In this document: one piece after another, positions 10,723 through 27,594 of the stretch | Layout: each line of letters opens with the position of its first letter | Numbering within the stretch: the stretch's first letter is position 1 | Source of the DNA: Burkholderiales bacterium | Lineage (GTDB): Bacteria > Pseudomonadota > Gammaproteobacteria > Burkholderiales > SG8-41 | Assembly: GCA_050250695.1 (NCBI GenBank) | Contig: JBFWOE010000005.1 | Location: 1-63,252, forward strand | Direction: 5' to 3' | DNA: 63,252 nt | Made by a program: the position numbers and the translations under genes | Notes under the pieces: generated by a model | The model's database searches: none | Seen by the model: only the letters and a program-made list of their open reading frames with translations | What the model was told of the DNA's origin: nothing

Positions 10723-11385
10723 TCAGGTCAGGAGCATGGTTTTCAGCTTGGCCACCGCTGCGCCCGGCGAATTGAAGATCGGGATGCTGCTCACCGCCGC
10801 GACCGCAGGTACCGCGCGCGACAGCGTGAACTGGGCAAGGACGATGACGTCGCAGTCCCTGATCTCTTTTGCCTTTGCGGCAACCAGCGCGTCATGTTTC
10901 GCGGCATCGCCGCCAGCGAGTGCATCGAAGGCGTGGTCCACCACGTACGGCACCAGTTCGACTTTCTGCCCGCGCGCGGCGGCCATCTCGAGGATCTCCG
11001 CGGAGATCGACGGGATGGTCGGTCCCACGGTTGCCATCACCGCGATGCGTGAACCCGCGTCCAGCGCCTGCTCGATCATTGCGTCGTTGGGCTTGAGGAT
11101 CGGCAGGTCAAACTCGGCGATGCAGGTGTCGATGACTTCGCGGAATGCCGAGCAGGTGAAAAGGATGCCGTCGGCGCCGCGGGACTCGATGTAGCGCGTC
11201 AGCGTACGGAACACGTCGTACATTTCCGGCACCACGCCGCCGGCTTCGCGCACCCAGGCGAACAGGCCGTCGTCGAGCAGGTTGCTGATGCGCGCTTGCG
11301 GCCAGTCGGCGGCAAAGGCGCGCACGGCGGCTTCCAATGCGTCCTTGTGGACGCTGAACAGAACGATATTGGGGCATTGCGTCAT
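10723..11385 (-). CDS. Asp/Glu/hydantoin racemase family protein
   Basis: GADGILFTCSAF and DVIVLAQFTLS motifs. Confidence 0.8.
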   Translation of the reverse strand: MTQCPNIVLFSVHKDALEAAVRAFAADWPQARISNLLDDGLFAWVREAGGVVPEMYDVFRTLTRYIESRGADGILFTCSAFREVIDTCIAEFDLPILKPNDAMIEQALDAGSRIAVMATVGPTIPSISAEILEMAAARGQKVELVPYVVDHAFDALAGGDAAKHDALVAAKAKEIRDCDVIVLAQFTLSRAVPAVAAVSSIPIFNSPGAAVAKLKTMLLT

Positions 11386-11521
11386 GCGGTGCCGCGCCTT
11401 TCGTCATTTACCGGGAATCAGGGTCGGGTCCGGCACCCCGGATCCGGCATTGTCGCGAATCTGCCATAAATTCTTAACACAATGGAACCGGTTCCCAGAT
11501 TCGCCACAACCGGATTACATC

Positions 11522-12448
11522 ATGAATGACAGCAACGCCACCAATTCAGACCAAGTGTTCCGCCGCGCATACAGCGAAATGCTCGACAGCTTCGACGAAG
11601 AACTCGAAATGGAAATCGACGACGGCCGGCTGGACGGCATTTTATCCGACATTGCCGAACATCCTGACCGGCAGAGCCTGGACCGCCGGGCTTATTTCAG
11701 GGAACTCTTCCGCCTGCAGGGCGAGCTGGTCAAACTGCAGGACTGGGTGGTGCACCGGAAACTCAAGGTGGTGATCCTGTTCGAGGGGCGCGATGCGGCC
11801 GGGAAGGGCGGCGTGATCAAGCGCATTACCCAGCGGCTCAATCCGCGCATCTGCCGCGTTGTCGCCCTGCCGGCTCCGAACGACCGCGAGCGCACGCAGT
11901 GGTATTTCCAGCGCTACGTGCCCCACCTTCCGGCCGGCGGGGAGATCGTGCTGTTTGACCGCAGCTGGTACAACCGCGCAGGCGTCGAGAAAGTCATGGG
12001 TTTCTGCAGCGACGAGGAATACGAGGAGTTTTTCCGCACGGTGCCCGAGTTTGAACGCATGCTGCTTCGGTCGGGGATCATCCTGCTCAAATACTGGTTC
12101 TCGATCACCGACGAGGAACAGCATCTGCGATTCAAGATGCGCATCCATGACCCGCTCAAGCAATGGAAGCTGAGTCCCATGGATCTCGAATCGCGCCGGC
12201 GCTGGGAGATCTACACCAAAGCCAAGGAAACGATGCTGGAACGCACCAATTTCCCCGACGTGCGCTGGTGGCTGGTGGAAGCCGTGGACAAGAAACGGGC
12301 GCGGCTCAACTGCATGCACCACATCCTGTCGCAGATTCCGTATGACGAGGTTCCGCACAGGGAAATCGCGCTGCCCGAGCGCCAGCGCAACCCCGACTAC
12401 TCGCGGATGCCGATGCCGCAGGAACTGTACGTGCCCGCGATCTACTGA
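11522..12448 (+). CDS. ppk2: polyphosphate kinase 2
   Basis: FEGRDAAGKGG Walker A, FDRSWYNRAGVE, KQWKLSPMD. Confidence 0.95.
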   Translation: MNDSNATNSDQVFRRAYSEMLDSFDEELEMEIDDGRLDGILSDIAEHPDRQSLDRRAYFRELFRLQGELVKLQDWVVHRKLKVVILFEGRDAAGKGGVIKRITQRLNPRICRVVALPAPNDRERTQWYFQRYVPHLPAGGEIVLFDRSWYNRAGVEKVMGFCSDEEYEEFFRTVPEFERMLLRSGIILLKYWFSITDEEQHLRFKMRIHDPLKQWKLSPMDLESRRRWEIYTKAKETMLERTNFPDVRWWLVEAVDKKRARLNCMHHILSQIPYDEVPHREIALPERQRNPDYSRMPMPQELYVPAIY

Positions 12449-13017: not shown

Positions 13018-13989
13018 TCAGTCCAGCCGGATATTCGCCGCCTTGATGACCCTGGCCCATTTGGCGATCTCGCTGACCATGTATCGGCCCAGCTCCCCGG
13101 GCTTGCCGCCGTCCGGTTCGATGCCGGACTTGGTCAGGAAGGCGCGGATACCGGGGTCGCCCAGCACCTTGCGGAACTCCTCGTTGATCCTGGCGATAAC
13201 CGGCTGCGGCGTGCCCTTGGGCGCGACGATGCCGTACCAGACCCCCGAGTCGTAACCTGGCACGCCGGATTCCGCGACAGTGGGCACACCAGGCATGCTG
13301 TTGACCCGCTTGGTGGTGCTCACCGCGATGGCGCGGATGCGCCCGGCCTTGATGTGCGCGGCGGAAGCAATTGGCGTTGCGAACAGCAGCTGGGTCTGTC
13401 CCGAAATCGTATCCACCAGCGCCGGACCGCCGCCCTTGTACGGCACATGCACGAGCTTGATGCCGGTGATGGTTTTCAGCAGTTCGGTTGCCAGGTGCGC
13501 ACCGGAGCCGTTGCCGGAGGAGGCGTACAGAATCTCGTCGGGATGTTTTTTTGCGACGGCGATCACATCCTTCATGGTTTTCACCGGCAGCGACGGATGC
13601 GCAACCAGCAGATAGGCGCCGCTGCCGAGCAGGGTGACCGGTTCGAAGTCCTTCACCGGATCGTAGGGCAGTTTATTGTACAGGCTGACATTGACTGCGA
13701 GCTGGGCGGTCAGGCCCATGGCGATGGTGTAGCCGTCGGGAGCCGAACGCGCCGCGGCTTCCATGCCGATGCTGCCGCCCGCGCCGCCGCGGTTGTCGAC
13801 GACAACCTGGTGGCCGATGTTTTCGGACATCTTGCGGGCGACCGGCCGCGCAATGGTGTCACTGCCGCCGCCGGGTGGATAGGGCAATATGAAGCGGATC
13901 GATTTGGCGGGATAGGTCTGTGCCAGCACGGCGGGGGTGGCAACCAGCGCGACGAGCACCAGCAGCGACAGACCAGCGGTTTTATTCAT
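13018..13989 (-). CDS. Bug/TctC substrate-binding protein
   Basis: YPAKSIRFILPYPPGGGSD, HVPYKGGGPA. Confidence 0.93.
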   Translation of the reverse strand: MNKTAGLSLLVLVALVATPAVLAQTYPAKSIRFILPYPPGGGSDTIARPVARKMSENIGHQVVVDNRGGAGGSIGMEAAARSAPDGYTIAMGLTAQLAVNVSLYNKLPYDPVKDFEPVTLLGSGAYLLVAHPSLPVKTMKDVIAVAKKHPDEILYASSGNGSGAHLATELLKTITGIKLVHVPYKGGGPALVDTISGQTQLLFATPIASAAHIKAGRIRAIAVSTTKRVNSMPGVPTVAESGVPGYDSGVWYGIVAPKGTPQPVIARINEEFRKVLGDPGIRAFLTKSGIEPDGGKPGELGRYMVSEIAKWARVIKAANIRLD

Positions 13990-16154: not shown

Positions 16155-16667
16155 TCAATAGCCTTTCTTGTAAATCGTGCCGCCGCATTGCAGGCAGGCT
16201 TCGATCAGGGTGGTTTTTTTCAGCTGCGTCTGCGCATTGCATTTCAGGCAGGTCAGCGTGCCGGCACTGGTGATTTCGCCGGCGCTGTAGACCAGTGCGT
16301 CGTTGGCCCTGTCGGACAGGTTGAGCAAACCTTTACCGAACAGCCTGAACGCTGCAGCCGTTGCCGCCAGTGCGCCCGCGCCCAGTCGCGCCGGGTGGAA
16401 GCGTTCCTTCGCTTCCTCGCCCAGCTGTTCCATGTCCTTCGAGGTCTGTGCCATGTCGCGTTTCAGGTATTCGCGGAACTGCTTGCCCTGCTCGGCGCTG
16501 ATTTCGCCCAATGCCACCAAATTGTCGTGGGCGATGGTCATCGAGGCTTCCAGCGCCTCGCGGCCCTTGGCCTGGCTCGCTTCCATTGCTTCGCGAAAAC
16601 GGTTGACGTAGCGGTCGTACTGCGACTCGGCGCGTTCATTCGCCTGTTTTCCCTGTGTTTTTTCCAT
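16155..16667 (-). CDS. zinc-ribbon-containing protein (DUF1451-like)
   Basis: YLKRD, YSAGEITSAGTLTCLKC...CLQCG; GAGGAG RBS. Confidence 0.8.
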   Translation of the reverse strand: MEKTQGKQANERAESQYDRYVNRFREAMEASQAKGREALEASMTIAHDNLVALGEISAEQGKQFREYLKRDMAQTSKDMEQLGEEAKERFHPARLGAGALAATAAAFRLFGKGLLNLSDRANDALVYSAGEITSAGTLTCLKCNAQTQLKKTTLIEACLQCGGTIYKKGY

Positions 16668-16753
16668 GATGTCCTCCTCTGTTGCCGGTTGCGTTTCATT
16701 AAGTGTGACCGCAACATCCGGTGATGGTTCGCGGATCCGGTAAGCTTGGGGGC

Positions 16754-18247
16754 ATGAATGCAAGCACCACGCCGGCCTACGCCGAACTCACCCGCGTCTA
16801 CACGCGGCTCTACCGCTACAGCCACCTGTCATCCATCGTCGGCTGGGACCGCAACGCGATGATGCCGCCCAAGGGCAACGAAGCGCGCGCCGCCGCCGAG
16901 GCCGAACTCTCGGCGCTGATCCACCGCACGCGCACCGATCCGCGGCTCAAAACATGGATGGATGCGGCGGAACAGGAACCGCTGGACGAACTGGCCCGCG
17001 CCAACCTGCGCGAAATCCGACGCGACTGGCGCGATGCCAACGCGCTGCCTGAATCGCTGGTCGAGGCGAAGACGCTGGCCGGTGCGCGCTGCGAACACGC
17101 CTGGCGCAGCCAGCGTCCCGCCAACGACTGGAAGGGCTTTCTCGAAAATTTCCGCGAAGTGGTGAAACTGTCGCGCCAGGAGGCGCAGCTGCTGGCCGAC
17201 GACAGCGGGCTCACGCGCTACGACGCGCTGATGGACCGTTACGAGCCCGGGGTGCGTGCGGTGGACATCGACCGCATCTTCGGCGACGTCAGGACCTGGC
17301 TGCCGGAGCTGATCACGAAGGCGCAGGCGAAGCAGGCGGGCGAAACCGTGATCGCCCCTGCGGGCCCTTTCCCGGTGGCGGCGCAGCGCGCGCTGAACCG
17401 CGAGGTAATGACGCTGCTGGGTTTCGATTTTGCGGCGGGTCGCCTCGACGAGAGTGCGCATCCGTTCAGCGGCGGCGTACCCGAGGACGTGCGCCTGACG
17501 ACGCGTTACAGCGAAAACGATTTCACACGCAGCCTGCTCGGCACCATCCACGAAACGGGGCATGCGCGCTACGAACAGAACCTGCCGCGCGACTGGCTGG
17601 GTCAGCCGGTCGCCGCCGCGCGCTCCTTCGGCATCCACGAAAGCCAGAGCCTGTCCTTCGAAATGCAGCTTGCACGCAGCCGCGCTTTCGCCGGGGTGCT
17701 GGCGCCGCTGCTGCGCAAACATTTCGGCGGCCAGCCGGCATTTGATCCCGACAACCTCCATCGCCTGTGGACACGCGTGAAGCCGGGACTGATCCGCGTC
17801 GACGCCGACGAGGTGACCTACCCGGCGCACGTGATCCTGCGCTACGAAATCGAGCGCGCGCTGGTCGAGGGCGAGATCGAGCCCGACGACATCCCTGCGC
17901 TGTGGGATGAAAAGATGAAAACCCTGCTGGGACTCGACACCCGCGGCAACTACAAGGACGGCTGCCTGCAGGACGTGCACTGGACCGAGGGCGCATTCGG
18001 CTATTTCCCGAGTTACACACTGGGCGCGATGTACGCCGCCCAGTGGTTTGCGGCGATGCTGCGCGTAACGCCGGATCTCGATGCGCGCATTGCAGCGGGC
18101 GATGTTGCGCCGGTGTTCGAATGGATGCGCGACCATGTCTGGTCGCAGGCGAGCCGCTGGCCGATGCCGGAACTGGTGCGCCGCGCCAGCGGCGAAGCGC
18201 TGAACCCCCGGCATTTCCGCCAGCATCTGGAATCGCGATACCTGTAG
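16754..18247 (+). CDS. carboxypeptidase Taq (peptidase M32)
   Basis: HPF, DVRLTTRY, HETGH, HESQS, IRVDADEVTY, QDVHW, GYFPSY. Confidence 0.95.
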   Translation: MNASTTPAYAELTRVYTRLYRYSHLSSIVGWDRNAMMPPKGNEARAAAEAELSALIHRTRTDPRLKTWMDAAEQEPLDELARANLREIRRDWRDANALPESLVEAKTLAGARCEHAWRSQRPANDWKGFLENFREVVKLSRQEAQLLADDSGLTRYDALMDRYEPGVRAVDIDRIFGDVRTWLPELITKAQAKQAGETVIAPAGPFPVAAQRALNREVMTLLGFDFAAGRLDESAHPFSGGVPEDVRLTTRYSENDFTRSLLGTIHETGHARYEQNLPRDWLGQPVAAARSFGIHESQSLSFEMQLARSRAFAGVLAPLLRKHFGGQPAFDPDNLHRLWTRVKPGLIRVDADEVTYPAHVILRYEIERALVEGEIEPDDIPALWDEKMKTLLGLDTRGNYKDGCLQDVHWTEGAFGYFPSYTLGAMYAAQWFAAMLRVTPDLDARIAAGDVAPVFEWMRDHVWSQASRWPMPELVRRASGEALNPRHFRQHLESRYL

Positions 18248-18311
18248 CCGGTCAGCAGAATAAAATGAATCCGGTTCCCATCCCGGGACGCGGCAGCGGA
18301 GGACGCAAGCC

Positions 18312-19988
18312 ATGGAAAAGCTGGAAGTCGTGAGCCCGGCAGGACTGGCAGCGGTGGCCGCGTCGGGTGCCGCCCCCAGGCTTGCCGATCTCGATGGCAA
18401 AACGGTCGGCGAGTTCTGGAACGGCGTATTCAAGGGCGACATTACTTTTCCCGTCATCCGCAGGCTGCTGCAGTCGCGGTATCCGCATCTGCGGATCATT
18501 CCCTATACCGAATTCCCGCACGCCCATGGCAGCGACAATCCGGCGGAGCAGCGCGAGCGGGCCAGGCGCCTCGCCGCGCTGGCGAAGGAGAAAGGCTGCG
18601 ATGCGGTGATCTCCGGCAACGGGGCCTGAGGGACCTGCGCCCCGGCCGCGGCGCGGCCGGCATTCGAGGCTGAAAAAACCGGCGTCCCTGCAGTCGTGGT
18701 GACGACCACGGGCTTTTCCCCGCTGGCGCGTTTCACCGGCAAGGCGGGCGGGGTCGAGGATCTGCGCATCGCGGAATATCCGGGCCCCCTGGGCATACAC
18801 GACAGCGACCTGATTGCCCGCAATATCGAAGGCACGCTGATCCCGCAGATCGTTGAAGGCCTTACCCGCGCCGGCGCAGGCCCTGCCACGGGCGCGGCGG
18901 CGTGCAATGCGCAGGACAGCGTGTTTGCGGGGACCGCGGACGAAATCAACCGCCATTTCATCGACCGTGAGTGGAGTGACGGACTGCCCGTGGTTCCGCC
19001 GACGCCGGCGCGGATCGAACAGTGTCTCGCCCGCACCCGTCATGCGCCCGACGAAGTGATCGCCGTGCTGCCCCCCGCCAACCTTCAGGCCACGCCGCGC
19101 AACATCGCGGCCAACCTGGTGATGGCCGGCGGCGCGCCGGAGCACATGCCGCTGATGATTGCGGCGGTGCAGGCGCTGGGCGACGAACGCTGCAGCCTCA
19201 ACAACCTCGGCAGTTCATCCGGGATCATCCCCTACGTGCTGGCCAGCGGTCCGATCGTGCGGCAACTCGGCATCCAGCACGGTCCGCAGATGATCTCCCG
19301 GCCGCCGAATCCCGCCATCGGGCGCGCGGTCGGCCTGATCGTGAGGAACATCGCGGGTTTCCGTCCCGGCGCGAGCTACATGGGCACTTTCGGTTATCCG
19401 CTGGCATTTGCGTTTGCCGAGAGTCCCGATACCCCGTGGGAACCGTTCCACGTGAGCCAGGGCCTGGCCGCGGAAAGCAGCGCGGTGACCATCGGCGTCA
19501 CCAACAACTGGGGTTCATCGCCTGCGCCGTACGACACGCCCGACAAGGACGGCGCGCAGGTGGCGCTGGAGCTGCTGTGCCGAGAAGTCGTCAAGAAGAC
19601 GCGGCTGTTCAACTTCCCGGCAATCGGGCCGGATGCCGAACACGTGATGGTGACCATGCTGCTGTCGCCGCCGGTTGCGAAATCGCTGGCTGACGCCGGT
19701 TATTCGAAGGCCGACGTGCAGCGTTACATCCATGAACATGCGCGCATGCCGCTGCGCGATTTCGAATGGGTGCTCAAGTACACCGCCATCCTCCGCACGA
19801 CCCTGCAGGCAGAGGTCGAAAAGGGGATATATCCGCGGGAATTCCTCGGCGCGCCGGACGACATGGTCCGCGTGCTCTCGAGCCCGGACGTCGTGCACCT
19901 CGTCGTCTGCGGCGATCCCCACCGCAACCGGGTCATGGTCATGGAAGGCGGGCATACCCGGCCGACGACCCGGGTGGTGACGGGCTGA
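18312..19988 (+). CDS. UGSC-family protein, predicted selenoprotein (U-G-T-C; Sec106 encoded by TGA 18627-18629), 558 aa
   Basis: ORFs 18312-18629 and 18696-19988 are in one frame, joined by TGA GGG ACC TGC GCC CCG..., giving CDAVISGNGA-U-GTCAPAAARPAFEAEKTGVPAVVV. C-terminal domain has WSDGLPVVPPT; perfect hairpin after the TGA. Confidence 0.88.
18642..18660 (+). promoter_or_regulatory. candidate bacterial SECIS hairpin (UGSC-family gene)
   Basis: CCGGCCGC-GGC-GCGGCCGG: 8-bp perfect stem starting +13 after the TGA, loop G at +21. Confidence 0.72.
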
Positions 19989-20127
19989 TCGATCCTGTTC
20001 CGGTCTGTCTTCAGGAAGGACAGGCGCACCTCGTGATGAGCGGAGCGGTCAATTTCTGGCCGTACCCGGCAATGCGCGCTAAGATGGTTGCCCGGGGCGG
20101 TTCTGCCCGGCCTGTTCAGGGGGGCGC

Positions 20128-20331
20128 ATGGAAACACTCTACAAATGGCGGGTGCAGGAAAAAGACAGGCGCGGACGCCTGCGCTGGCGCCTGGTCAAGA
20201 CGCCGATGACGGAGGAGACCGCACGTTTCTGGGCAGCCAACAACCAGCGCGTCATAGAACGCATAGATGCGCCGGCGGCGGCACAAGGCATCGTCGGCGT
20301 GCCTGTGCAGGAGCGGCGGACCACGCAGTAA
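20128..20331 (+). CDS. small hypothetical protein
   Basis: 67-aa ORF filling the intergenic gap, G-rich upstream; family not recognised. Confidence 0.45.
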   Translation: METLYKWRVQEKDRRGRLRWRLVKTPMTEETARFWAANNQRVIERIDAPAAAQGIVGVPVQERRTTQ

Positions 20332-20518
20332 GCGCGTGGCTTCCTTGCCCGTTTCCGCAAGTTTTACTGTGGGAACATTAATAATATAAATAAAAACAAC
20401 AACTTGCATTGCATGTGCGATGTCAACGCCATGTCCGTTGACGCCGCAACGCGTTGCCCCGATGCTGATGGCGCGGTTGCATCATCCACGCGCTTCACCC
20501 ACGCATGAGGCAGACATC

Positions 20519-21685
20519 GTGAACAGAATAATTCCGGCTGCCGTCACCGCGCTGTTGGCCACTGCCGCCGTTGCCGCCGCGCTCGACGAATTCCGCGCAC
20601 CGGCCAGGCAGCGCGATGTGCCGGCAAGTTACTGGGAAGAACCCTACGTCGGCGTCACAGGCAACGGCCGGGTGGTGCCCGGCCTGTTCAGGCTTGCGCA
20701 GACCGGCGTGTCGACCGCACCGGTGCAGCAGGCCGCCGCTGCGTTTCTTGCCAGCCTTGACGACACGCAGCGCAAAAAAACCCTGTTTCCGGTCACCGAT
20801 GACGAATGGCGGCGCTGGGACAACCGCCATTTCCCGACGCGTCAGGGCACGGGTTTTTTCGAGATGAACGTGGTGCAGCGCGCGCTGGCCATTGAACTGA
20901 TGCGCGCCAGCCTCAGCGCCAAGGGGCTGCAGCAGACCCGCGACGTGATGAACCTCAACGGCACGCTCGCCGAACTCACCGGCAGGTTTGATGAATACGG
21001 CGAATGGTTCTACTGGATCAGCATCATGGGCGAGCCGTCGGCGACGCAGCCCTGGGGCTGGCAGCTCGACGGCCACCACGCGATCATCAATTATTTCGTG
21101 CTCGGCGACCAGGTGGTGATGACGCCGGTGTTCATGGGCTCGGAGCCGGTGAAGGCCGGCAGCGGGCGTTTCAGGGGCACCGAAATCATGCAGGCCGAGC
21201 AGGACAGGGGCCTGGCGCTGATGCGGTCGCTCAACGCGGCCCAGCAATCGGCGGCGCGCATCCGCAACGACAAAAGCGGCAGCGACCTGCTCGCCGACGC
21301 CTACAAGGACAATCTGGTGCTCGACTACGCCGGCATCCGCGCCACGGCGCTGAACACCGCGCAGCAGGCGCAGTTGCTCGGCATCATCGCCGAATACGTC
21401 AACAACATGAAGGAAGGCCACGCCAGGGTGAAGATGGCGGAAGTGCGCAAACACCTGGACGACACGTACTTCGGCTGGATCGGCGGCACCGGACCCGATG
21501 CGGTTTTTTATTACCGAATCCACAGCCCGGTGATCCTCATCGAATTCGACCACCAGCGGCCGATTGCCCTGGAGCGTTCAGGAAAACCGACGCGCAACCA
21601 CATCCACACCGTGGTGCGCACGCCCAACGGCAATGACTACGGCAAGGACCTGCTGCGGCAGCACCACCTCAAACACCGGCACTGA
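20519..21685 (+). CDS. DUF3500 domain secreted protein
   Basis: Signal peptide; [41 protein letters not shown]. Confidence 0.88.
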
Positions 21686-25175: not shown

Positions 25176-26141
25176 TTATTGCGGGCTGATTTTTTCGTCG
25201 CGGATGACCTTGGTCCAGCGCGTGATTTCAGCGGCCACGAAGCGCTGGGCTTCATCCGGGGTGGAAGGCGTAACCTCCGCTCCAAGCTGGGTCAGCTTTC
25301 CGGAAACAGCGGGCTGTCGCAGGGCTGATGTCACCACGCCGTTCAGCCGCTTGACCATGCCGGCGCTCAAACCCTTGGGCGCGGCAACCGCATACCACCC
25401 GCGGACGTCAAAGCCGGGGATGGTCTCGGCTATGGTCGGGGTATCCGGCCAGAAGCTGGCGCGTTTTCCCGTCGTAATCGCCAGCACACGCATTTTGCCG
25501 CTGGCCAGATGGGGTGCCACGCCGGCAGGGGTATTGAAAATGACCGGAATTTCACCGGCGAGCAATGCCATCGGCGCCGAACTGCCCCCTTTGTAAGGGA
25601 TGTGGTTCAACTGGATGCCGGCACGGGACTGGAACAGCACCGATGCCAGGTGCATGCCGGTGCCGACGCCACCGGTGCCGTAGTTGATCGCTCCTGGCTT
25701 GTCCTTGCCCATGCGGATCAGATCCGCGACCGACCGCGCCTGAAATTGCGGTGCTGTGGCCATCACGAAAGGCGTGGCTGCGGCCATTGAAATGACCGTG
25801 AAGTCTTTTGCGGCGTCGTAGGGGAGCTTTTTGTAAAGGCCCACTGACGTGGCATGCCCGGAGGCCATCAGGAACAGGGTGTAACCATCCGGTTCGCCGC
25901 GGGCGACGATGGCGGCGCCCACCGTGCCGCCGGCACCGGGGCGCCCGTCAACGACGACCTGCTGACCCAGGGTCTCGGACATCGAACCCGCCAGCAGCCG
26001 GGCGGTGATGTCGACGGAACCTCCCGAGGTGAAACCATGCACCATGCGTATGGGTTTGACTGGCCAGGTCTGGGCATGCGCGCCGCTGATGGCTTCGGAA
26101 AGGAACAGCAGCGCCAGGATTGGGAATATTCCGGTTTTCAT
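25176..26141 (-). CDS. Bug/TctC substrate-binding protein
   Basis: WPVKPIRMV, RPGAGG, HIPYKG. Confidence 0.92.
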   Translation of the reverse strand: MKTGIFPILALLFLSEAISGAHAQTWPVKPIRMVHGFTSGGSVDITARLLAGSMSETLGQQVVVDGRPGAGGTVGAAIVARGEPDGYTLFLMASGHATSVGLYKKLPYDAAKDFTVISMAAATPFVMATAPQFQARSVADLIRMGKDKPGAINYGTGGVGTGMHLASVLFQSRAGIQLNHIPYKGGSSAPMALLAGEIPVIFNTPAGVAPHLASGKMRVLAITTGKRASFWPDTPTIAETIPGFDVRGWYAVAAPKGLSAGMVKRLNGVVTSALRQPAVSGKLTQLGAEVTPSTPDEAQRFVAAEITRWTKVIRDEKISPQ

Positions 26142-26184
26142 GCGGCAACCTCCTTGTGAATCCTTGGTTGAACTTTTACATGTT

Positions 26185-27594
26185 TCAGGCGCGCGGTCCC
26201 GGAGCGACAGGTTTGTACTGATAACTGGCATCGCGCATGATGCGCTGGCGTGAAGCCAGTAACGCCTGCTGCTGCTGCGCGAGTCTGTCCCCGGGGTAGA
26301 GCAGTTTCCCGTTGCGCTTTACCGGCTCACCGGCAATCATCACCGTGTCGATGTCGGCTGATTCCGCATACATGACCACCGCGTGAACCGGATCGCCGCC
26401 GGGCAGCACCGGATAGACATTCATGCTGCGGGCATTGATCATCACCAGATCGGCCTGCTTGCCGGGGGTGATCGAGCCGATCTTCTTGTCCATGCCGAGC
26501 ATGGCTGCGCCGCCCATGGTGGCCCACCTCAGAGCGTCGCGCGTCTGTGTTGCATGCTCGCTGTCCACGGCGGGCCAGCGCCCCAGGGCATGCAATGAAC
26601 GGTTGTCGATTTCGCGCTGGTGCTGGAAGGCATGGCGCATGACCCACATCATCGAGCCGTTGAAATAGGGGTCGCAATCGGAGCCCAGAGACGGCATGTG
26701 ACCCAGTTTCAGCAGGCGGCCCAGCATCGCGACACGTTCGCTGTTGAACATTTCCGTGAGGTTGGTGGCAGAGATCGTGCAGCCGGCATCCAGAACCATC
26801 TTGAGTTCGTCATCCTCCAGGCAGTTGCCGTGCGCGATGTTGTGATCGGGTCCGAGCAGTCCTTCCTTTGCCAGCCGCCACATGCCGTCTTCGAGTTTGC
26901 GCTGGCCCTTACGCGCCCAGGTGTGCGCGCTGTTGATCAGGCCGTATTCCCTTGCCAGCCTGATGTCCTGGACGCAGACATCGTAGGTGGCGTAGTCCGG
27001 TCCCAGAGTTGCCATGGCCAGGGTGACCAGCCGGTCGTCCGTGGCGAATTTTCCGGTTCGAAGGCGGTGAATTTCTTCGCGTGGGAACGGAATTTCGTAG
27101 TAAGGGGTCTGGCCTTCAACGACCGGAGGTTTGACGGTGCCACGGGCAAAAACCGCGCGGATGCCGGATTCTTCCAGCCCTTCGATGGCGGCATCGGTCA
27201 TTTCCGAATCGCGCACGATATGACACCAGTCAAAGATGGTGGTGGCCCCGTGATTGATCTGGTTCAGCGCGCCGAGCAGGTTGGCGACGCGTACATCTTC
27301 CGGTTTGTAGTGCATCGCCATTTTGCGATGCATGTTGCCGTGATAATCCCGTTTGCTGACCCAGTTGGCGCCGATGCCGCGCAGCGGAAATTCCCAGGTG
27401 TGGATATGGGCATTGACCAGCCCCGGAATGACGATCATGTTGCCTGCGTCGATGGTTTCCGCAGCGTCGGCATGGATGTTTTTCGCGACTTCAAGGATTT
27501 TCGCGCCTTCGATCAGTATGTCTCCGCCTTCCAGGTCACCGATTGCCGGATCGAGACTGATCACGGTGGCGTTTTTGATCAGCTTGCGTTTCAT
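26185..27594 (-). CDS. amidohydrolase family (AtzA/MtaD-like deaminase)
   Basis: PGLVNAHIHTWE, SLGSD, ATMGGA..LG..IGSITPGKQADLV. Confidence 0.9.
   Translation of the reverse strand: MKRKLIKNATVISLDPAIGDLEGGDILIEGAKILEVAKNIHADAAETIDAGNMIVIPGLVNAHIHTWEFPLRGIGANWVSKRDYHGNMHRKMAMHYKPEDVRVANLLGALNQINHGATTIFDWCHIVRDSEMTDAAIEGLEESGIRAVFARGTVKPPVVEGQTPYYEIPFPREEIHRLRTGKFATDDRLVTLAMATLGPDYATYDVCVQDIRLAREYGLINSAHTWARKGQRKLEDGMWRLAKEGLLGPDHNIAHGNCLEDDELKMVLDAGCTISATNLTEMFNSERVAMLGRLLKLGHMPSLGSDCDPYFNGSMMWVMRHAFQHQREIDNRSLHALGRWPAVDSEHATQTRDALRWATMGGAAMLGMDKKIGSITPGKQADLVMINARSMNVYPVLPGGDPVHAVVMYAESADIDTVMIAGEPVKRNGKLLYPGDRLAQQQQALLASRQRIMRDASYQYKPVAPGPRA

Follow-up and report, generated by a model that had tools for sequence, protein, structure and literature searches.

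Proteins with a U-G-S-C motif, in which U is selenocysteine (Sec), are an established family of selenoproteins. The part of Zhang and Gladyshev (2008) that deals with this family counts 255 genes with Sec and 21 with cysteine (Cys) in the Global Ocean Sampling data, and guesses that the proteins have a thioredoxin-like fold (PMC2398784). The same source names a "UGSC/Unknown_1" fusion, and the UGSC reads in its Dataset S1 run on into W[ST]DGLP[IV]VPPT...NGVMAGCRPEYMP. In the section of a 2026 review that covers them, UGSC proteins are still listed as uncharacterized (PMC13188914). Going by titles and abstracts, the literature on these selenoproteins consists of bioinformatic surveys and reviews, in which we found no functional test reported. 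Here we analyze a gene of this family from a Burkholderiales bacterium (GenBank assembly GCA_050250695.1), at positions 18312..19988 on the forward (+) strand of contig JBFWOE010000005.1. We use "the window" for the whole stretch of DNA that we analyzed (63,252 nucleotides).

The gene has 558 codons, including one internal TGA, and a TGA stop codon (19986-19988). It encodes a UGSC domain and, in the same frame, a C-terminal domain of about 355 amino acids (residues ~203-558; 18918-19985, + strand), which is the "Unknown_1" of the 2008 paper (PMC2398784); we will call it the C-domain. The gene does not represent a new kind of system; it is a new member of a known but uncharacterized family. Our analysis does provide new leads for this abundant and long-uncharacterized family: a rule of pairing with the C-domain, a predicted interface between the two parts, and a predicted fold that is unlike thioredoxin.

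Selenocysteine recoding

Gene callers divide 18312..19988 into two open reading frames (ORFs) of 105 and 430 amino acids. The sole in-frame TGA is codon 106 (18627-18629, + strand), in the context ISGNGA-U-GTC-APAAARPA, and from the sequence comparisons below, it is almost certainly read as Sec. This residue (U106) would be the first of a U-G-T-C motif, and in the predicted structure it lies between a strand (residues 98-104) and a helix (109-122). Cys109 (18636-18638, + strand), the UxxC partner of U106, is Cys in 41 of the 53 alignment rows with a residue in that column.

The Pfam model for the UGSC family (PF24696) matches residues 5-185 (18324-18866, + strand) across the TGA with 91.1 bits, and the match covers positions 1-171 of the 172 in the model. 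(The gathering cut-off is 25 bits.) The halves on either side of the TGA, taken alone, score 29.4 and 14.2 bits. A stop at this codon would therefore split one domain.

The homologs have either Sec or Cys at this site. A word-indexed search of 5.8 billion proteins found 871 relatives; among the 120 that were listed, most are proteins of 420-450 amino acids that start just past the Sec position. Full-length Cys homologs (P0004, P0009, and P0010) read GNGA-C-GTC and are collinear with our protein over 99% of its length. We also collected 80 related loci from species-representative genomes, and for 70 of these we could anchor the alignment at the Sec site (8 were not anchorable and 2 were mis-anchored). 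The codon at the site is TGA in 53 of the 70 loci and TGC or TGT in the other 17. As a side note on codon usage, in Geodermatophilaceae, UGSC-motif selenoproteins have been described whose Sec is encoded by TAG and whose tRNA-Sec has the anticodon CUA (as given in the part of PMC5330540 on these proteins).

The genome encodes the machinery for Sec incorporation. The genes for SelA (selA, 574.7 bits), SelB (selB, 421.5 bits), and tRNA-Sec (75.9 bits) lie together on contig C98. The selD gene is broken into two pieces, each at the end of a contig (C177:5065-5694 and C151:7090-7605; loci L019 and L020). The first selD piece carries an in-frame TGA, so SelD is probably itself a selenoprotein in this genome.

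A stem-loop soon after the UGA codon is the geometry of the bacterial selenocysteine insertion sequence (SECIS). In our gene, a SECIS-like hairpin at 18642-18660 (+ strand) starts 12 nt after the TGA, and it has a stem of 8 perfect pairs and a GGC loop: CCGGCCGC (18642-18649)-GGC-GCGGCCGG (18653-18660). No Rfam family matches around the hairpin at E ≤ 1. The support for the hairpin is comparative, as its position is conserved and there are compensatory changes in the relatives. Specifically, the best hairpin begins 10-13 nt past the TGA in 41 of the 53 TGA-bearing relatives. Each of three subfamilies has a different stem sequence and shows compensatory changes within it; for example, L034, which is in the same subfamily as our gene, has the compensatory stem CCGGCCTC/GAGGCCGG. 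The sequence downstream of the site also folds more stably in the TGA loci than in the Cys loci (mean z = -0.89 vs. +0.26; P = 2.4e-4, Mann-Whitney test, which overstates the case because the sequences are related and not independent).

A preliminary description of this gene, made from the DNA alone, had proposed a Sec-containing protein of the UGSC family. The 558-residue frame, the NGA-TGA-GTC context, the 8-bp hairpin, and the WSDGLPVVPPT sequence that it listed are all present where it placed them. The Pfam match across the TGA, the TGA and Cys codons of the homologs, and the presence of selA, selB, selD, and tRNA-Sec in the genome all support its proposal of a Sec-containing gene, and the Pfam score supports the family assignment. 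It had also reasoned that homologs without Cys or Sec would argue against the idea; the homologs do carry one or the other.

The UGSC motif and the fusion

The preliminary description considered the threonine in U-G-T-C to be a notable variant. It is not: among the rows that cover this site in an alignment of 134 relatives, the third position of U/C-G-x-C is S, G, T, A, L, V, I, or N, and with so much variation at x, Thr is trivial. Three close relatives from the Betaproteobacteria (L031, L032, and L034) share UGTC, as does L047, which is more distant. The motif of L033 is UGNC.

The same description treated the fusion of the two domains as unusual. It correctly placed both domains in one reading frame, but the fusion was already named in the 2008 paper, whose Dataset S1 includes such reads (PMC2398784). 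It is the dominant arrangement and is not new: using hidden Markov models that we built for both domains, we found the fused form in 72 of the 80 loci, with 79 single-frame ORFs that contain both domains. The C-domain is not matched by any Pfam or NCBIfam model. NCBIfam does have an equivalog model for the UGSC protein (NF041046, with a cut-off of 125 bits), and the fused proteins of this genome all score below the cut-off (59.8 bits for our protein, 52.1 for the fused paralog L006, and 48.7 for the fused paralog L008). The stand-alone paralogs in the same genome score 118.7-151.4 bits.

Pairing of the UGSC module with the C-domain

The genome has eight genes with a UGSC domain, each with one in-frame TGA. 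Besides our gene, these are L001 (contig C135), L002 (C219), L003 (C168), L004 (C166), L005 (C64), L006 (C129), and L008 (C144). All eight are fused to or adjacent to a C-domain gene: three are fused (our gene, L006, and L008), three are split with the UGSC gene first, and two are split with the C-domain gene first.

We also checked 300 other sampled genomes of the phylum. Three of them carry genes of the NF041046 type, and all four UGSC loci in those three genomes adjoin a C-domain gene. Thus, nine out of nine "stand-alone" UGSC genes are in fact paired, and in 12 of the 12 loci that we checked, the UGSC module has the same partner domain, either fused to it or encoded next to it. The pairing seems to be a rule for the UGSC family, and given the 12 paired loci, the two parts are best studied together.

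Among the 80 related loci, too, either gene can come first in the split forms, and an extra C-domain gene is present in several of the loci. The natural split forms break after the entire UGSC domain and not at the Sec codon. By their record titles, the hosts include Betaproteobacteria, Alphaproteobacteria, Actinomycetota, and Chloroflexota. A search of the Protein Atlas by features returned only unannotated clusters of stand-alone proteins of ~350-370 amino acids, with a score of 0.96 and a recognition value of 2150 (the mark is 2300).

Some loci have further variations. In L065, L072, L073, L076, L078, and L080, a second, stand-alone C-domain gene lies ~200-300 nt past the fused gene (~590 nt in L073). 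In L065, an ORF of the Pyr_redox_2 family directly follows this second gene, and L072, L073, and L076 also have that neighbor family. L041, L043, and L053 have two or three tandem copies of the system. Some Cys-form relatives have N-terminal extensions and C-G-L/I-C motifs (P0126 and P0162, and also P0124, P0135, P0160, and P0179), and similar C-G-L/I-C forms occur in loci of metagenome-assembled genomes from animal guts. Two of the long Cys forms have Cu_amine_oxidN1 domains (Pfam), which hints at extracytoplasmic versions and gives no clue as to function.

Predicted structure and interface

We used AlphaFold2 with the 134-row alignment to predict the structure of the whole chain (pLDDT 95.5, pTM 0.94). 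In this model, the UGSC domain is made of five consecutive beta-alpha units with no beta hairpin, and its best structural matches, in both the VIA and the Foldseek lists, are Rossmann- or flavodoxin-like. No thioredoxin family in Pfam matches our protein. The preliminary description had proposed structure prediction as a test for a thioredoxin-like UxxC domain, and the 2008 paper had guessed such a fold; the model bears out neither. (That a thioredoxin fold is absent from lists of structural matches does not exclude that fold.)

Searches of the PDB by sequence and by profile gave nothing significant; the best hit, for the UGSC domain, was a designed P-loop protein (E = 0.0087). With the whole model as the query, Foldseek gave only partial, Rossmann-like matches (TM ≤ 0.19). 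The C-domain has no solved structural relative in these searches, which does not prove that its fold is new.

The C-domain has many near-invariant residues. These include W221, D223, G224, and P229-P230-T231, all within the WSDGLPVVPPT motif (W221-T231; 18972-19004, + strand), as well as N268, M271-A272-G273, P276, N333, R338, N346, G361, E370, W376, and G384.

To see how the two parts might fit together, we turned to a naturally split pair in the Cys form (L126). The predicted complex has an ipSAE of 0.77, and the best control reached just 0.01. (Of 157 solved complexes, 116 reach the mark that we used for ipSAE, as do 2 of 215 mismatched pairs.) At least 91% of contacts are shared between the runs for this complex, and the pLDDT of the partner is at least 89. 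No similar complex is solved in the PDB, so the score does not stem from a known structure, though the docking is a prediction and no more.

The predicted interface includes residues 90-92 and 94-96 of the UGSC partner, which form the loop equivalent to the Sec loop, and the invariant Pro of its N-terminal strand. On the other chain, residues 13 and 21-24 (the equivalents of the W, the PPT, and the next residue) touch the UGSC subunit; the equivalents of the D and the G are not among the contacts listed. Mapped to our protein with BLASTP, parts of the interface correspond to W221, P229-T231, N268, M271, N297-S303, L342, and N346. The N297-N-L-G-S-S-S303 loop (19200-19220, + strand) is of particular interest, as its equivalent in the split pair contacts the C-G-S-C redox loop. 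From the mapped contacts, much of the conserved surface of the C-domain is where the redox module makes contact, or close by. The redox loop is thus predicted to lie in the interface of the two parts.

Neighboring genes and a proposed mechanism

Across 81 loci (including our gene), the most common neighbor families are TctC (24 loci), SDR (12), and Pyr_redox_2 (10). A Pyr_redox_2 gene is also found at 3 of 4 split loci. In the split locus L123 (2909-10841, genome G209), an apparent operon has the order selA, selB, a thioredoxin-fold C-E-T-C module fused to the C-domain, the UGSC selenoprotein, and a fusion of Pyr_redox_2 and AIRS domains, which is of the Ndh-SelD type. In the split locus L126 (3491-8781, genome G235), the Cys-form system adjoins a GntR/FCD regulator, a thioredoxin-reductase-like gene, and a symporter of the sodium:dicarboxylate family (SDF), which is directly upstream. 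The C-domain protein of L126 has an N-terminal thioredoxin-fold C-E-T-C module, as in L123. (The module scores 27.5 bits against AhpC-TSA in L123, above the cut-off of 26, and 19.6 bits against Thioredoxin in L126, below the cut-off of 23.5.) Genes similar to MmgE/PrpD, CoA-transferase, and ICL are also found among the neighbors. The SDF symporter and neighbors such as TctC, MmgE/PrpD, and CoA-transferase hint, weakly, at a small carboxylate as the substrate.

We think that the protein is probably a two-part Sec/thiol oxidoreductase, with the UxxC loop at the domain interface and the C-domain holding the substrate. The recoding context, the architecture, the pairing, and the docking were computed, and from these and the neighbors we infer the redox chemistry, the electron donor, and the small carboxylate-type substrate. 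In the proposed mechanism, the hairpin just downstream would direct the reading of UGA-106 as Sec, to yield one selenoprotein of 558 residues. The UGSC module, with its Rossmann- or flavodoxin-like fold, would bear the U-G-T-C redox loop where a helix begins, and it would pack against the C-domain, which most likely binds the substrate; this packing would place the selenol/thiol pair at the interface, beside the N-N-L-G-S-S-S loop. Sec106 might then attack or reduce the substrate held by the C-domain, and a Sec106-Cys109 selenenylsulfide might form. Re-reduction could be by a pyridine-nucleotide disulfide oxidoreductase (a flavoprotein) or by a thioredoxin-type system, for which the Pyr_redox_2 neighbors and the C-E-T-C modules of L123 and L126 provide circumstantial support. 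The preliminary description had suggested a two-domain redox enzyme: the two domains are in one frame and a redox role is plausible, and it is the thioredoxin-like UxxC domain that the model does not show.

Several observations count against our proposal. Taken alone, the hairpin is not beyond chance (z = -1.0, and 67 of 500 shuffled sequences fold equally well; a second shuffle estimate gave z = +0.98), and this stretch is 80% GC. The interface residues were derived from a relative whose C-domain is just 32% identical. The CxxC pair is missing altogether from some full-length relatives, which shows that a redox loop is not indispensable for the C-domain to occur. There is no conserved operon partner across the 81 loci, and no neighbor is universal. 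The fold search with the C-domain gave no functional lead; its best match in Foldseek was a class I fumarate hydratase (E = 1e-3, TM = 0.24). Finally, the Cys that is most conserved in the C-domain is Gly in our protein, so this paralog may be altered or inactive, as discussed below.

A broader idea, which we offer tentatively and would not bet on, is that UGSC is never free-standing. The selenium would be part of a widespread two-part enzyme with "Unknown_1", with its active site at the interface, and the enzyme would be a distant, aerobic-world cousin of Stickland selenoprotein B that reductively cleaves a small carboxylate. If so, then in some genomes a two-part UGSC system of this kind is encoded within a selA-selB-selD cluster. 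Natural Cys-form split pairs, and isolates with the system, exist (records titled Nocardioides sediminis, Vineibacter terrae, and Robertmurraya sp.). The Cys-form pairs should therefore be expressible without the Sec machinery, and together with the pairing and the predicted interface, they make the function of UGSC proteins directly testable.

Alternative explanations

The alternative that fares best, though we consider it rather doubtful, is that UGSC is a distant relative of the Sec-containing part of Stickland "selenoprotein B" (GrdB/GrdF/GrdH/PrdB), and serves as a non-Stickland reductase in aerobes. The Sec would reductively cleave a C-N or C-X bond of a small carboxylate or amino acid that is held by the partner, which would yield a Se-S bond. 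Both families have UxxC, according to the part of the 2008 survey that describes them (PMC2398784). Using hmmscan, residues 80-143 of our protein match positions 123-183 of the PrdB model (E = 6e-4) and positions 320-385 of GrdH (E = 2e-3). Similarly, the paralog L005 matches positions 325-420 of GrdB (E = 4e-4), the paralog L008 matches PrdB (E = 4e-3), and a fused gene on the L085 contig matches positions 321-420 of TIGR01918 (E = 1.5e-4). These matches are weak but recurrent, and they fall on the same region of the models, around the Sec site. The neighbors also lean towards organic acids (TctC in 24 of 81 loci, the SDF symporter in L126, and the genes like MmgE/PrpD, CoA-transferase, and ICL), but Burkholderiales have so many TctC genes that the adjacency of TctC may be due to chance. 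Furthermore, the scores are far below the cut-offs (14.0 bits vs. 65.45 for TIGR01918 and 19.3 vs. 300 for PrdB), the alignment of Sec with Sec is presumed from the Sec positions in GrdB and PrdB, and Pfam did not detect a pyruvoyl-type partner (GrdE/PrdA) in the C-domain. A search for GrdB or PrdB sequences to use in a profile comparison turned up none in five genomes (at the class level, it extended to only three genomes), so the claim of homology stays at weak hmmscan matches.

A second possibility concerns our copy of the gene, which might be a degenerating or functionally shifted paralog in which a change from Cys to Gly at residue 274 disabled an ancestral activity of the C-domain. The codon is GGC (19131-19133, + strand), in N-x-V-M-A-G-G-x-P; the relatives have Cys, as in N-x-V-M-A-G-C-x-P. 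Our protein has the sole Gly at this position in the 134-row alignment (the other rows have 120 Cys, 12 Ala, and 1 Ile), and a motif scan of the 80 loci found 80 Cys, 13 Ala, and no Gly among its 93 matches. In alignment A1, the nearest relatives (57-77% identical) have retained the Cys, and with eight paralogous systems in the genome, there is room for drift. On the other hand, the frame of 558 codons is intact, the Sec codon and the hairpin are kept, and so are the other near-invariant residues. The Ala in 12 of 134 rows, and the Gly at the corresponding position in paralog L008, indicate that there is no strict requirement for the Cys. The gene is also near-identical in contigs from the runs of four sequencing studies, two of which are not possible sources of this assembly. 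Across these contigs, including those of X7 and X8, which are runs from other studies, the TGA and the Gly274 codon are unchanged, and the only two differences are C>A at 18577 (in X6) and G>A at 19799 (in X6, X7, and X8). We therefore consider a degenerating or shifted paralog to be improbable. Without Cys274, the function of this copy must rest on Sec106 and Cys109 alone, and the retention of the Sec codon and the hairpin suggests that this pair probably acts alone and does not merely recycle Cys274. Relatives that lack the CxxC pair or Cys274 are too few to show an association between the two losses.

Slightly less probable still is that the pair acts in selenium metabolism, for instance by reducing a selenium compound or delivering selenium to SelD, instead of acting on a carbon substrate. 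The pair in L123 is within an operon for the Sec machinery that runs from selA and selB to the Ndh-SelD type fusion; there is a rhodanese-domain ORF near the pair in L125; and a rhodanese-repeat ORF is found in 4 of the 81 loci. But a setting like that of L123 is seen in just one of the four split loci, the Sec genes of our genome are on a different contig than the window, and 17 of the 70 anchored loci encode Cys forms. A genome with few selenoproteins often has its Sec machinery clustered with a selenoprotein gene, so the operon in L123 may only mark UGSC as a main client. The arrangement fits either a role in handling selenium or a main selenoprotein of that genome.

Finally, it is very improbable that there is no recoding, with a stop at 18629 and a separate protein of 430 amino acids starting from the GTG at 18696, as automatic calls such as P0002 (430 amino acids) have it and as the split genes in other loci might suggest: the stop would halve the UGSC domain, the 22 codons from the TGA to the GTG are conserved in frame with the Cys homologs, the natural splits are not at the Sec codon, and the genome contains the Sec machinery.

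Genomic context

A Shine-Dalgarno-like GGAGG is at 18298-18302 (+ strand), 9 nt 5' of the ATG at 18312. The flanking genes are also on the + strand and encode an M32 carboxypeptidase (16721-18247, upstream) and a DUF3500 protein (20420-21685, downstream). Neither is a conserved partner; M32 is shared only with L033, where it is not adjacent. A scan of 16500-20600 for promoters and terminators found nothing beyond the expectation from shuffled sequence, and a scan of the window for tRNAs found none. Elsewhere in the window are a gene for a PPK2 polyphosphate kinase (11282-12448) and two genes for TctC (Bug-type) solute receptors (13018-13989 and 25176-26231), which are in keeping with a host like the Burkholderiales. 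The DNA of the window is present in metagenomes from landfill, sludge, freshwater, groundwater, and rhizosphere, and no RNA dataset is listed among those that contain it.

Comparison with known systems

Our protein resembles the UGSC family of Pfam (PF24696) in that it matches the whole model across the Sec codon and has U/C-G-x-C at the same place. As in the rest of the family, Sec forms far outnumber Cys forms. It differs from the NCBIfam equivalog NF041046 in its score (59.8 bits, below 125) and in having the motif UGTC.

The architecture and the motifs are those of the UGSC/Unknown_1 reads in Dataset S1 (PMC2398784). The published examples, as given in that dataset, are of the UGSCTPAVLRA type and have the Cys in MAGC. 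The paralog L006 is of exactly this UGSC/Unknown_1 type, while our copy has UGTCAPAAARPA and a Gly instead of that Cys.

Like the thioredoxin-fold selenoproteins with UxxC or CxxC (which are similar to Trx, Prx, or DsbA), our protein has a pair of redox residues, separated by two others, where a helix begins, and it probably goes through a selenenylsulfide cycle. It differs from them in its predicted fold of five beta-alpha units without a beta hairpin. Thioredoxin-fold modules are found apart from the UGSC domain, as fusions to split C-domain proteins.

As in the selenoprotein B subunits, there is a UxxC motif, and four members of the UGSC family have weak local similarity to those subunits at the Sec site. 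In both systems, a selenoprotein part goes with a second, substrate-binding polypeptide, which for UGSC would be the C-domain. The scores are far below the cut-offs for selenoprotein B, no partner similar to GrdE or PrdA was found, and by record titles the hosts of UGSC systems are Betaproteobacteria and other groups, instead of the amino-acid-fermenting clostridia that use selenoprotein B.

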